From IMG/VR virus record IMGVR_UViG_3300027604_000052: 18,157 nt of DNA; one strand, 5' to 3'. Of this stretch, positions 3,644 through 6,490 are shown one piece after another. Position 1 is the stretch's first letter; every line of letters starts with the position of its first letter. Origin of the DNA: a virus. The notes below the pieces were generated by a model. It worked only from the letters and a program-made list of their open reading frames with translations. It was not told the DNA's origin and searched no databases. Both the position numbers and the translations under genes were made by a program.

Positions 3644-4437
3644 CGGAGTGGCTCTCCAGTCTTCATGTCGATCCCCTCGTAGAGCAACTCGTCGATCGTG
3701 AAGAGCGCGCGAAGAGGCGTCCCATCTGAAAGCGTCTCGGGCCGCTCGCGGCGCTTGTCGATCACGGTGATGATCCCTCGCACGTCGAGGCCCGCGCCGC
3801 GAAGGTGCCCGGCAGCGGCCGTAGCGGATTTGCCCGCCGACACGATGTCGTCGAGGAGCACGACCCTCGCGCCCTTCGAGATACAGCCCTCGATAAACCC
3901 CGGCGTGCGGCCGTGATCCTTCGAAGCTTTCCGTACGTAAAGGATGTCGAGCTTACGGCCGTTCTGATCCGCGTCCTCGACCACGCTCTCGCGCGCGGTG
4001 TAGAAAGCGAGGACGCTCGCCAAATGACAACCGCCGAGCACGATCCCGGCGACGGCGTCCACGGGCGCGAACGCGAGAAGCTCTTGGTAGAGTCGCGGCG
4101 CGAGGAGTTCGTGCAGGTGTCCGCTCATGCAGGCGCGCTTGATGTTGAAGTACTCCGTGGTCCGGCCGCCGCCGGGCGCCTCGAAGTACGTGCCGGGAGC
4201 CGAGACTTCCAGGCTGTGGAGCCGGATGAGCCCGAGAAGCTTCGTGCGATCGAGGATGGGTTCGGGCAGGATGAACGTCGCGAGATCTTCGTCCTTGAAG
4301 GCTCCCACTTGCCACGTGTCGCTCCACGACGCTGGCTTGGCGAGACGCTCGTCGTGCGTGTGCGGGTAGTCTTTCGCGACTGCCCGACACTGCGACGGCA
4401 GCAGCGGGCAAACGAATGGACGCTTCTTCGTCACCAC
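3640..4437 (-). CDS. Orotate phosphoribosyltransferase-like (PyrE-family type I PRTase) with an N-terminal extension of about 60 aa
   Basis: RKASKDHGRTPGFIEGCISKGARVVLLDDIVSAGKSATAAAGHLRGAGLDVRGIITVIDKRRE aligns with E. coli PyrE [61 protein letters not shown], which carries the PRPP-binding motif. It has a GTG start and AGGGG lies 5 nt upstream. Confidence 0.8.
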   Translation of the reverse strand: MVTKKRPFVCPLLPSQCRAVAKDYPHTHDERLAKPASWSDTWQVGAFKDEDLATFILPEPILDRTKLLGLIRLHSLEVSAPGTYFEAPGGGRTTEYFNIKRACMSGHLHELLAPRLYQELLAFAPVDAVAGIVLGGCHLASVLAFYTARESVVEDADQNGRKLDILYVRKASKDHGRTPGFIEGCISKGARVVLLDDIVSAGKSATAAAGHLRGAGLDVRGIITVIDKRRERPETLSDGTPLRALFTIDELLYEGIDMKTGEPLR

Positions 4438-4565
4438 CGGCCCCTATACCCGCGCACCGCGCGGTGAACGACGCTCTCGGAACGCCCCGTCACGTGCGCG
4501 ATGTTACCTTCTGCACGAAGCTCGCGCATGAGCGCCCTCTCCTCATCGGTGACTCGCCTACGCAT
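4431..4565 (-). CDS. 44-aa HTH-like micro-ORF (MRRRVTDEERALMRELRAEGNIAHVTGRSESVVHRAVRGYRGRW), not in the track
   Basis: Its ATG overlaps the SWIM gene end by 8 nt, and its TGA overlaps the GTG start of the phosphoribosyltransferase gene (GTGGTGA). There is a helix-turn-helix-like segment. Support is length plus coupling only. Confidence 0.35.
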   Translation of the reverse strand: MRRRVTDEERALMRELRAEGNIAHVTGRSESVVHRAVRGYRGRW

Positions 4566-5040
4566 CGCTGTCCTCCGTGAGTGATCTCAACCGATCGATT
4601 TCCTGGAGAAGCATGCGGATCGCGAAGAGACCGTTGTTGTGAAGCCACCATCCGTGTGGACGCTTGGCCCACTCGCGCACGGTCTTCTCGAACGCTCTCG
4701 GCGCCATCGGTTCAGGAGTCGGGACCGCCAAGCTAATATGCACCGCGAGCTGGTGCTTGCAATATGGAGGGATCCACCCGAACCCTTCATCATCGTCGGG
4801 ACACCCTTCGCCGTCGGGACACGTGCAGGTCGACTCCCCCGAGGACGAGATCTCCACGACGTACGAATTTCCTTCGGAGCCCTCGATGAGGTACGAGCGG
4901 CCGTCGCGGGGCCCGGTGAAGACCGCGATGACGTTGTCGATCAACATGCGTGCGCGCTCGAGCCGCGAACGAAGCAGAGGATATTTCTGCGCCCACTTCG
5001 TGACGGCCTCGTCGATCATCGCTTGCCGCACTGCTTCCAT
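4558..5040 (-). CDS. SWIM zinc-finger domain protein, 160 aa
   Basis: CTCPDGEGCPDDDEGFGWIPPYCKHQLAV matches the SWIM pattern CxCx(n)CxH with the typical CKHxxAV. The start ATG overlaps the rtcB stop (TGATG). The track ORF 4558..5154 carries a 38-aa Arg-rich artifact extension. Confidence 0.7.
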   Translation of the reverse strand: MEAVRQAMIDEAVTKWAQKYPLLRSRLERARMLIDNVIAVFTGPRDGRSYLIEGSEGNSYVVEISSSGESTCTCPDGEGCPDDDEGFGWIPPYCKHQLAVHISLAVPTPEPMAPRAFEKTVREWAKRPHGWWLHNNGLFAIRMLLQEIDRLRSLTEDSDA

Positions 5041-6464
5041 CAGTCGGCGCCTTTGATGTTCGCAACCGGGTAGAGCCGCTTGTCGATCCGCGCGATGTCC
5101 TCGGCCTCGAGCACCGCGAGCACCTCGTCGAGGTCCTTGTAGACGTGCGCGCACTCGTCGAGCGGCACGTGGTTATGGTTTCCGATAATACCCTCGACCG
5201 GGACGCCGTTGAACACGCGCTTCACGGTCGCCATCTCCTCGTCGATGAAGAGCTGCTTGTGCTCTAACTGCCGCTTCGCCTTCCCGCGCGCCATGGTGCG
5301 GCCCGAGCCGTGGTTCACGGAGCACGCAGTCTTGTGCGCCCCCTCCTTCGGGAAGAGGATCGCGGCGCCCTCGTACATCGAGCCTGGGATCAGGCACGGA
5401 TGGCCCGTGTGCTCCCACAGCGTGCCGTAGAGATCGGGGTGCCCAGCAGGGAAAGCGCGCGTCGCGCCCTTCCGGTGCACGAAACCCTTCTTCCTCGTGC
5501 CGTCGGGAAGAACGAGCGTCTCTTCTTGAACGAGGTTATGGCTGATCTCGTAGTAGACGTGCACGTCCGCACCGAAGACTTCCTGCGTCGCCTCGCGGAT
5601 CCCATTCACGATGATGTGGCGATTCGCGACGGCGAAGTTCGCAGCGCTGTTATGGTGGTTCCAGTACTCCTTGCCGAGCGGCTCGTCCGCGCGGAGCCAC
5701 GAGCCCTCGCGGTGGCTCGCCGGCATGCCCCGCAAGCGCGCGCCCTCGTAGAAGAAGTGGTTGGCGGTCTGCCAGCCGTAGCCGCGGCTGCCGCAGTGGA
5801 CCATCACGTAGACTTCGCCTGAGTCCTTGTCGCACTGCATCTCGACGAAGTGGTTGCCTCCGCCGACGGAGCCGAGCTGGCCGATGACGCTCGAGTACGC
5901 CTTGTCGATCTTGGTCAAGTCCGCGGCCTCGTCCACGGGGATGTACTGACGCTCGCAGAGACCAGCTTCCACGCCGATGGCCTTCGCGCCGAAGCGCAGG
6001 ATCTCGTTCGCTTGGTCTTTTCCGAACTTCGGCATCAGCGCTGGGCGGTTATGCCCCTTGCCGGTCGCGATGCGCTTCTCGACCTCCTTGACCCAGCGCT
6101 CACGCTCGTACTTGCTCTTGATCGACCCCGCGTTGAGATCCGCCTTCATATGAAGGATCCCGCAAGAAATATCGTACCCCGAGGCGCCCTGGATGATGGT
6201 GTCCTCGGTCACGATGACCGACCCGATGGGGACGCCGTACCCGGAATGACAATCGGGCATCAAATACGCGCCGATCACACCCTCGTAGCTCGCGCCGAAT
6301 GCGATCTGCTTCCAGCAGTCTTCTTCAGAAGAAGCGAAGAGGGCTTCCGAGAGAAACGCGTGCGCCTCCACCTTCATGTCGCCCACCTTCGGCAGCACGT
6401 AGTGATTGTCCGAGACCTTCGTGACCGCGTACTTGAACGACATGGCATCCTCTACGTCCGACAT
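5040..6464 (-). CDS. rtcB: RNA-splicing ligase RtcB (3'-phosphate/5'-hydroxyl RNA ligase)
   Basis: Motifs match archaeal RtcB one-to-one: MPDCHSGYGVPIG, GYDISCGI, LGSVGGGNHFVEMQ, VMVHCGSRGYG, ANFAVANRH, VHRKGATRAFPAGH, LIPGSM, SVNHGSGR. High GC3. Confidence 0.93.
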   Translation of the reverse strand: MSDVEDAMSFKYAVTKVSDNHYVLPKVGDMKVEAHAFLSEALFASSEEDCWKQIAFGASYEGVIGAYLMPDCHSGYGVPIGSVIVTEDTIIQGASGYDISCGILHMKADLNAGSIKSKYERERWVKEVEKRIATGKGHNRPALMPKFGKDQANEILRFGAKAIGVEAGLCERQYIPVDEAADLTKIDKAYSSVIGQLGSVGGGNHFVEMQCDKDSGEVYVMVHCGSRGYGWQTANHFFYEGARLRGMPASHREGSWLRADEPLGKEYWNHHNSAANFAVANRHIIVNGIREATQEVFGADVHVYYEISHNLVQEETLVLPDGTRKKGFVHRKGATRAFPAGHPDLYGTLWEHTGHPCLIPGSMYEGAAILFPKEGAHKTACSVNHGSGRTMARGKAKRQLEHKQLFIDEEMATVKRVFNGVPVEGIIGNHNHVPLDECAHVYKDLDEVLAVLEAEDIARIDKRLYPVANIKGAD

Positions 6465-6466
6465 GG

Positions 6467-6490
6467 CTCAACCTGACGTTCTCAACCTGA
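6467..6490 (-). repeat. 10-bp direct repeat (plus strand CTCAACCTGA; minus orientation TCAGGTTGAG) x2 with a 4-nt spacer, immediately upstream of the rtcB ATG
   Basis: Read directly in the sequence. The second copy overlaps the stop of the 76-aa gene. Confidence 0.5.

Follow-up and report, generated by a model that had tools for sequence, protein, structure and literature searches.

An intact RtcB RNA ligase gene on a putative phage-like element and the overlapping gene of a small SWIM zinc-finger protein: an apparently lineage-specific pairing

The factors on which RtcB is known to rely for its function are archease, Ro/Y RNA, PrfH and the metazoan ligase complex. An rtcB gene whose stop codon overlaps the start of a gene encoding a small SWIM-type zinc-finger protein raises the question of whether the two products form a dedicated RNA-repair pair. 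This arrangement is found in IMG/VR record IMGVR_UViG_3300027604_000052, an 18-kb stretch of DNA (18,157 nt, 62% GC), hereafter the window, which was analyzed over its whole length. A previous reading based on the letters alone (the sequence-only reading) had considered RtcB and SWIM to be a meaningful pair. The five genes on which that reading was built, namely rtcB, the SWIM-finger open reading frame (ORF), a helix-turn-helix (HTH) micro-ORF, a phosphoribosyltransferase (PRTase) gene and a gene for a protein resembling the major vault protein (MVP), were all correctly identified and located on the minus strand, which holds every plausible gene of the window in tightly packed order. The features with which the question is concerned are the following:

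5040..6464, minus strand: rtcB, 474 aa (Pfam RtcB, E 1.7e-85)
5038..5042, minus strand: rtcB/SWIM junction TGATG, with one base common to the rtcB stop and the SWIM start
4558..5040, minus strand: SWIM-type zinc-finger protein gene, 160 aa, with an N-terminal helical hairpin, a 4-stranded sheet, a CxC…CxH finger and a ~60-aa C-terminal helical extension specific to the subfamily
4753..4827, minus strand: codons of the predicted SWIM zinc ligands C72, C74, C94 and H96, enclosing a lineage-specific 9-residue loop insertion (EGCPDDDEGFGW region)
4431..4565, minus strand: 44-aa helix-turn-helix gene (Pfam HTH_38, E 0.005)
3640..4437, minus strand: type I PRTase resembling orotate phosphoribosyltransferase (OPRT), 265 aa, with a 62-aa lineage-specific N-terminal extension

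The rtcB stop codon TGA (5042..5040) shares its A with the SWIM ATG (5040..5038), so that the overlap noticed in the sequence-only reading is confirmed as a TGATG motif by which SWIM translation is physically coupled to RtcB translation. The SWIM stop codon TAG (4560..4558) lies inside the start of the 44-aa HTH ORF (ATG at 4565..4563; overlap of 8 nt), and the HTH stop codon TGA (4433..4431) overlaps the GTG start of the PRTase gene (4437 or 4434); the micro-ORF does thus bridge into the PRTase gene, as had been proposed.

We compared this arrangement with that of a sister element, L022 (the 45.9-kb NCBI contig JBLFKU010063852.1 of GCA_052916105.1), which is syntenic with the window and has more than 20 genes in common with it at 45–93% amino acid identity. 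The RtcB of L022 is 92.8% identical to the window RtcB, and an RtcB of the same cluster (at least 90% identity) is also encoded on contig L023. The gene order in L022 is rtcB, 12 nt, a gene for a 50-aa HTH protein and a gene for a 201-aa PRTase; the SWIM gene is exactly missing, and no SWIM gene was called or could be aligned in either L022 or L023. The L022 junction keeps an ORF of nine codons, stop counted (ATG GAG ATC ATG AAT GCC GGC GCG TAG), which opens with the stop/start overlap seen in the window and closes, like the window SWIM ORF, on GCG TAG. Since both ends of this relic match, the difference between the window and L022 amounts to an in-frame 456-nt indel. The heptamer GAGATCA, which is common to the relic and to the L-R-S codons near the SWIM C-terminus, would slightly favor a deletion in L022.

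Neither gene was found to keep the other as a neighbor elsewhere. No RtcB is encoded nearby at six loci carrying close SWIM homologs (L007/L008, L009, L010, L011, L016 and L017), where the SWIM gene is the sole gene in common with the window, nor within 4 kb in 13 IMG/VR contigs carrying small SWIM genes (11 of them longer than 100 kb). The neighbors of small SWIM genes in IMG/VR contigs encode DNA methylases, UDG, ThyA, DHFR, NT5C, RNase HII and, in one case, an RNA ligase. Conversely, searches with a profile hidden Markov model (HMM) revealed no SWIM-family ORF at the RtcB loci L012–L015 or at the rtcB loci of phages Omnicron, phiCbK, Special G and Goe26; with L022 and L023, the RtcB loci at which none was detected number ten. 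Taken together, the absence of SWIM from the sister element and the lack of reciprocal linkage at other loci make a dedicated RtcB-SWIM partnership unlikely, and the meaningful pair of the sequence-only reading is not upheld. The pairing is thus specific to one lineage and looks more like the outcome of gene shuffling than like a new RNA-repair system.

The RtcB itself appears to be complete. It matches Pfam RtcB (PF01139) with 288 bits (cut-off 27) over profile positions 6–426 of 426 and aligns over its entire length with the P. horikoshii structures 1uc2/4dwr of RtcB (E 2e-49). All nine catalytic and metal-binding residues are kept, D71, H73, D98, C101, N204, H205, H223, H309 and H385 corresponding, in the same order, to D65, H67, D95, C98, N202, H203, H234, H329 and H404 of the P. 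horikoshii enzyme. The gene is therefore as unambiguous as its motifs had suggested and, as every metal ligand and the guanylylated histidine are kept, we expect its product to be an active ligase.

Relatives of this RtcB at 76–87% identity are very numerous (hundreds). One of them, 80% identical, is encoded on a 7.0-Mb contig which is presumably a bacterial chromosome (L013), where its gene adjoins a hipA/HTH pair and has neither RtcA nor RtcR within 8 kb. By comparison, all 94 GenBank phage records with an RtcB are less than 60% identical to the window RtcB, and the ~50 matches listed reach 26–34%. Since the window RtcB is thus closer (~80%) to RtcBs on large, presumably chromosomal contigs than to those of GenBank phages, its gene was probably captured from a host recently. 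Relatives at 82–84% identity also occur in viral or phage-like contigs (L012, L014 and L015); on the 252-kb IMG/VR viral contig L012, rtcB lies near genes for NUDIX, a tRNA-binding protein, Cpn60 and an Rnl2-type RNA ligase. Metagenome assemblies contain the exact window RtcB in 26 index blocks; the contigs that carry it reach 23 kb, and the gene order is the same in all 13 retrieved loci of the window lineage. A further 474-aa RtcB of the same cluster (P0276, at least 90% identity) sits on a 70-kb contig. A megablast search with the whole window gave no match among GenBank phages and PLSDB plasmids.

Two observations were made beside these rtcB relatives. A duplicated fragment of the RtcB N-terminus (aa 7–86, 72% identical to the window RtcB) lies 2 kb upstream of the full rtcB gene on the 7.0-Mb contig (L013, 5796..6035). 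On L014, a tRNA-Met gene (176..249) lies directly upstream of the rtcB gene whose product is 84% identical, followed by a NUDIX gene, an order which fits the clustering of tRNA and RNA-repair genes in phages. As for a role in defense, PADLOC gave no matches for RtcB or SWIM and, apart from a weak match of the PRTase described below, only IetA/TRIP13-like matches for the distant AAA ATPase, so that a defense-system reading was set aside.

We next consider the partners with which RtcB might be expected to operate. As stated in the sequence-only reading, RtcA, RtcR, archease and Rsr are missing: Pfam scans of ~40 window ORFs revealed no RtcA, archease, TROVE, PrfH or sigma54 activator (RtcR), and no window product reaches 300 aa apart from RtcB, an AAA ATPase and the MVP-like one. 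The longest contig of the window lineage is 23 kb, of which 21.4 kb were examined; neither rtcA nor rtcR was called in L001, which reaches beyond the window, and no standard rtcBA-rtcR locus emerged in these 21.4 kb. tRNA genes are absent from the window and from L001, L019 and L022. The sequence-only reading had also pointed to Y-RNA- or vault-RNA-like RNAs; Rfam models gave no match in the window at E<0.5, and neither Y-RNA, vault-RNA nor any other Rfam match was obtained in L001, L019 and L022, the three longer or related loci.

A bacterial rtcBA-rtcR RNA repair operon has been described (PMC7790460). Like that operon and its Salmonella rsr-yrlBA-rtcBA variant, the window encodes an RtcB-family ligase whose active site is intact, but it has no RtcA, no sigma54/CARF RtcR, no Rsr/TROVE protein and no Y RNA. 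It is more akin to the stand-alone RtcBs of phages (jumbo phages, Caulobacter phiCbK-like phages, mycobacteriophages and Bacillus SP-10-like phages), in which rtcB likewise occurs singly, surrounded by small accessory genes, and is not accompanied by rtcA, rtcR or archease. Stand-alone RtcB is already known in phages from the 94 GenBank records and from the literature, where it is treated as a phage RNA-repair gene, including in jumbo phages, and proposed to reverse the attack of host RNases on tRNA (PMC7824862). The SWIM, HTH and PRTase neighbors of the window rtcB, on the other hand, were found neither in four phage rtcB loci searched by HMM nor in eight sampled by annotation.

These results are, in our view, best explained by an intact, stand-alone and host-derived RtcB on a phage-like mobile element, accompanied by a facultative SWIM accessory gene, which we regard as the probable situation. 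The window would then be part of a long one-strand string of accessory genes of an uncultivated, high-GC phage-like mobile element common in metagenomes. Metal-independent ribonucleases of host defense or of competing elements may cut RNA and leave 2',3'-cyclic-phosphate and 5'-OH ends; RtcB would reseal the cut tRNA or rRNA, as proposed for phage RtcB (PMC7824862), and translation would be kept running for the element. The HTH protein (44–50 aa) and the OPRT-like PRTase would be the neighbors that stay with rtcB in the one related lineage available, whereas SWIM would be a facultative insert of one lineage and probably an adaptor that binds nucleic acid or protein. On present evidence, the locus is mainly an example of the uptake of a host RtcB by mobile elements and of the exchange of individual accessory genes beside it.

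Several points weigh against this explanation. SWIM follows RtcB in 13 of 13 window-lineage contigs, and this, with the stop/start overlap of a single base, shows that SWIM is co-expressed and retained in the lineage. There are also hints of a connection of the SWIM family with RNA repair or translation rescue. In both L007 and L010, two otherwise non-syntenic loci, the SWIM gene has a gene for PTH2 at a distance of no more than 3.5 kb, and these are the only two genes that the loci share; in L038/L039, a small SWIM gene and a gene for an Rnl2-type RNA ligase are ~3 kb apart. Furthermore, the N-terminal domain of the 348-aa SWIM homolog P0075 is LigT-like (2H); the sole match to it in the PDB is the 2'-5' RNA ligase 1iuh, at E 0.08, and the alignment includes both HxT motifs. 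The sister lineage without SWIM is the one such lineage found, and the change it documents is either a loss or a gain. With regard to the nature of the element, no capsid, terminase or portal gene was seen in the 21 kb available, and a plasmid, an integrative conjugative element or a chromosomal island is possible.

Some of these points speak for a true two-component repair unit, in which SWIM would act as a substrate-targeting or activating cofactor that replaces archease or a Ro/Y-RNA-type scaffold and presents broken tRNA or rRNA to RtcB. TGATG coupling, the retention of SWIM throughout the lineage, the absence of archease from the window, and the occasional vicinity of the SWIM family to PTH2 or an Rnl2-type ligase, together with its one fusion to a LigT-like 2H domain, would all agree with such a cofactor. 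We nevertheless consider this unit quite unlikely, given that L022/L023, with a 93%-identical RtcB, keep the gene order but lack SWIM, that no RtcB stands beside other SWIM homologs and no SWIM-family gene beside the other RtcBs examined, and that small SWIM genes of large viral contigs mostly have genes of DNA and nucleotide metabolism as neighbors. An RNA-repair gene lies within 4 kb in ~4 of 17 SWIM contexts, which is, by a rough estimate and not a computed statistic, about what chance would give in the gene-dense genomes of large phages. Other fusions of the SWIM family, moreover, involve Rad52-like, RING-like and probably SNF2-type partners. A broader version, according to which the 160–180-aa SWIM subfamily would be an RNA-end- or tRNA-binding accessory module of phage RNA repair and translation rescue, interchangeable beside RtcB, PTH2 and an Rnl2-type ligase, fused to a 2H domain in one case and tuning the substrate choice of RtcB here, seems to us very improbable. 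If the pairing were functional, it would provide a new class of cofactor for RtcB and the first function for the widespread small SWIM proteins of phages.

The assignment of the SWIM protein itself was examined by motif, family and structure. The motif C72-x-C74-x19-C94-x-H96 (CTC…CKHQLAV) is conserved, the four residues being invariant in 6 of 6 close homologs and in 45 of 45 broader homologs; it is therefore not a chance occurrence. D76, K95 and A99 are also invariant across the 45 aligned sequences. The window protein scores 14.4 bits against Pfam SWIM (PF04434), below the gathering cut-off of 19.6 (E 0.029), whereas SWIM is the top Pfam match for all six close homologs, and 37 of the 45 relatives reach E<=0.01 (best 1.7e-9). 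Accordingly, the canonical SWIM finger of the sequence-only reading stands by its motif, conserved in the CxCxnCxH pattern of the homologs, and by its relatives, although the direct Pfam call of the window protein remains below threshold.

Close homologs of this protein are rare, only ~6 being found among 5.8 billion clustered proteins. A SWIM profile search of 1.84 billion representatives yielded 273 relatives, nearly all of them stand-alone proteins of 90–130 aa that match the first ~95 residues, and the ~60-aa C-terminal helical extension is present in only ~8 representative sequences. An AlphaFold2 model based on the 45-sequence alignment (mean predicted local distance difference test, pLDDT, 88.4) shows a two-helix hairpin, four strands, a zinc knuckle, a helix and two more helices, with low confidence only in the lineage-specific loop between the cysteine pairs; the top BFVD matches are viral SWIM-type proteins. 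An earlier model from 6 sequences (pLDDT 74.7) gave nothing but noise in a Foldseek search of the PDB, and the SWIM profile gave only insignificant matches among PDB sequences (the coiled-coil/OB region of proteasome Rpt4, E 0.2–1). No match was obtained by tblastn with the window protein against phages and plasmids or with a typical small SWIM protein (P0016) against phages, and a scan of viral contigs with the alignment of close homologs (A1) found no relatives.

The known SWIM proteins of PF04434 (ZSWIM8, Shu2/SWS1, SNF2-associated SWIM and MuDR transposases) differ from the window protein, which is small and stand-alone, with its own hairpin and sheet and the rare C-terminal extension. The family of small stand-alone SWIM proteins is large and frequent in very large phages, and the literature yielded no studied function for any of its members. 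Its fusion partners are heterogeneous, including one LigT-like 2H domain, RING-like and Rad52-like domains, and long proteins that we took, by eye, to be of the SNF2 type; this heterogeneity points to a generic binding module. Among the fusions, the 296-aa protein P0154 carries a SWIM domain followed by a domain that looks, by eye, like Rad52 or a single-strand annealing protein (SSAP), and the guess that the C-terminal domain of the SWIM fusion P0054 is a HAD phosphatase was not borne out by a PDB search. On a 452-kb contig of a metagenome-assembled genome (L007, 7020..16352), the SWIM homolog and PTH2 are located between two copies of DDE_Tnp_1, each with a NikA-like small gene, an arrangement like the cargo of a composite transposon; these transposases also give weak matches to the SWIM-family HMM.

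The HTH ortholog of L022/L023 is 50 aa long and identical at 40 of 44 aligned residues (91%). Its codons in the window and L022 show 12 synonymous-only and 4 non-synonymous differences, a pattern resembling that of rtcB (107 and 34). These substitutions mark the 44-aa HTH ORF as a genuine gene that is maintained by purifying selection. The PRTase core, by comparison, is only 53.5% identical between the window and L022. The PRTase matches Pfam Pribosyltran with 27.4 bits (cut-off 26.3) and phrog_32468 (E 3e-17), and its best family is NCBIfam pyrE, at 74 bits (cut-off 106.8); it falls below the equivalog cut-off for every named enzyme. Homologs are 185–212 aa long and cover only ~75% of the window protein, the 62-aa N-terminal extension being specific to the lineage; its GC content at third codon positions (0.79) is of the coding type. 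The window PRTase appears to share the fold of OPRT and other type I PRTases, among them the PRTase-fold regulators PurR and PyrR, with an intact phosphoribosyl pyrophosphate (PRPP) loop (VVLLDDIVSAGKS), to which it adds the 62-aa N-terminus. A match to the ShosT toxin of ShosTA was weak (15.9 bits, E 0.002, PADLOC) and confined to the PRPP loop, and no DprA-like ShosA is present, which ruled out identity with this toxin-antitoxin system. A scan of viral contigs with the PRTase found no relatives.

The order RtcB-HTH-PRTase is common to the window and L022 lineages, and a functional linkage of the three is possible. The functional unit might then consist of these three genes, with the HTH protein and the PRTase forming a split PurR/PyrR-like regulator of the operon that senses PRPP or nucleotides, or with the PRTase acting as a nucleotide-salvage or signal-making enzyme that aids repair, and with SWIM as a passenger. 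Such a unit would account for an order kept in both lineages despite a PRTase core at 53.5% identity, as against 91–93% for RtcB and HTH, and for the overlap at every junction; a weak match to B. subtilis PurR (E 0.002) appears among the many PRTase matches. In addition, the longest contigs of the PRTase homologs P0301, P0304 and P0307 (9,017, 13,006 and 45,869 bp) equal in length those of the RtcB members P0279, P0275 and P0278, which suggests that they are the same contigs. The two lineages are, however, close relatives, so that the order may be simply inherited; a 55%-identical PRTase occurs without RtcB or HTH on the phage-like contig L033, which carries a PG_binding_1 protein, and the RtcB relatives at L012–L015 have no PRTase. 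No RtcB pathway is known to need a PRTase. This unit is, in our estimation, unlikely.

The remaining question concerns the far end of the gene string, where the MVP-like gene had led the sequence-only reading to a link with a vault- or TROVE-like RNA-protein complex. Two further features flank the region discussed so far:

1..2256, minus strand: MVP-like gene, listed as context only, with which this gene string closes downstream; truncated by the window end (870 aa in L001)
6482..6712, minus strand: 76-aa ORF immediately upstream of rtcB, 73% identical in L022, without a family match

The MVP-like protein matches Pfam MVP_shoulder (E 4e-30) and Vault_3 (30.3, cut-off 28.8) and aligns with the major vault protein in the PDB over aa 490–714 (E 3e-13). 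Homologs at 43–49% identity are encoded in five IMG/VR viral contigs (L028–L032; 19–142 kb, GC 26–46%) of otherwise unrelated gene content; MVP-like genes thus recur in large uncultivated phages, and this recurrence may be of more interest than the SWIM pairing. Together with the selected HTH ORF and the large SWIM family, enriched in very large phages, it is the most reusable outcome of this analysis.

An operon building a vault-, Ro- or Y-RNA-like ribonucleoprotein, in which an MVP-like shell, RtcB and SWIM would cooperate on small RNAs, would be suggested by the position of the MVP-like gene, 2.8 kb downstream on the same strand, and by proteins of the SPFH fold that are encoded near rtcB elsewhere, namely the phiCbK band 7 protein and P. 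aeruginosa PaFlo8. This scenario strikes us as highly improbable. The window, L001, L019 and L022 gave neither a TROVE protein nor a match to Y RNA, vault RNA or anything tRNA-like; the sequence available around the five viral MVP-like loci, up to 10 kb, holds no RtcB, no SWIM-family gene and none of the other window genes; the PRTase and MVP-like genes have four small genes, unrelated to them, in between; and the band 7 protein of phiCbK is not significantly similar to the MVP-like one. The proposed link to a vault- or TROVE-like complex is therefore not supported.

The SPFH-type neighbors were considered in their own right. In Caulobacter phage phiCbK (L048, 68780..71172), the band 7 protein is encoded two genes upstream of rtcB, and it was rejected as a relative of the MVP-like protein for want of significant BLAST similarity. 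The SPFH-fold protein PaFlo8 is encoded inside the rtc locus of P. aeruginosa (PMC13086221). In Brevundimonas phage Marchewka (L051), TerC-TerD and a 444-aa orphan precede rtcB; the idea that the MVP-like gene corresponds to the Ter/TelA-type genes of this locus was rejected, as the 444-aa neighbor resembles neither the MVP-like protein nor any chain in the PDB. There are hints in these arrangements of a recurrent link of RtcB to membrane-scaffold or Ter-type genes; no SPFH protein is annotated at six other phage rtcB loci.

The window as a whole holds ~35 small same-strand genes with overlapping ends, including genes for DUF3846, PadR, NikA-like and AAA ATPase proteins and many orphans, a content that speaks for a mobile element. 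Upstream of rtcB lie the 76-aa ORF, a 143-aa ORF and the genes for PadR, the NikA-like protein, DUF3846 and the AAA ATPase, along with orphans. A scan of positions 2000..9200 for promoters and terminators gave nothing exceeding the shuffled expectation. The coding assignment of positions 8528..8964 (~440 nt) is ambiguous between the two strands, metagenome annotations calling a 92-aa gene on the opposite strand; the interval has no Rfam match and is not conserved in L022.

Downstream, the PRTase gene is followed by four small orphan genes and then by the MVP-like gene, all on the same strand. Two of the four (2539..2775 and 3347..3643, minus strand) encode paralogs with the common motif AIAAW[ED]AV…HPD…IANRG.G and without a family match, and between them sits a gene for a Cys/His-rich protein of 192 aa, which is 74% identical to a protein of L015. 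The 98-aa paralog also follows the PRTase in the sister element (L022, 12204..12323).

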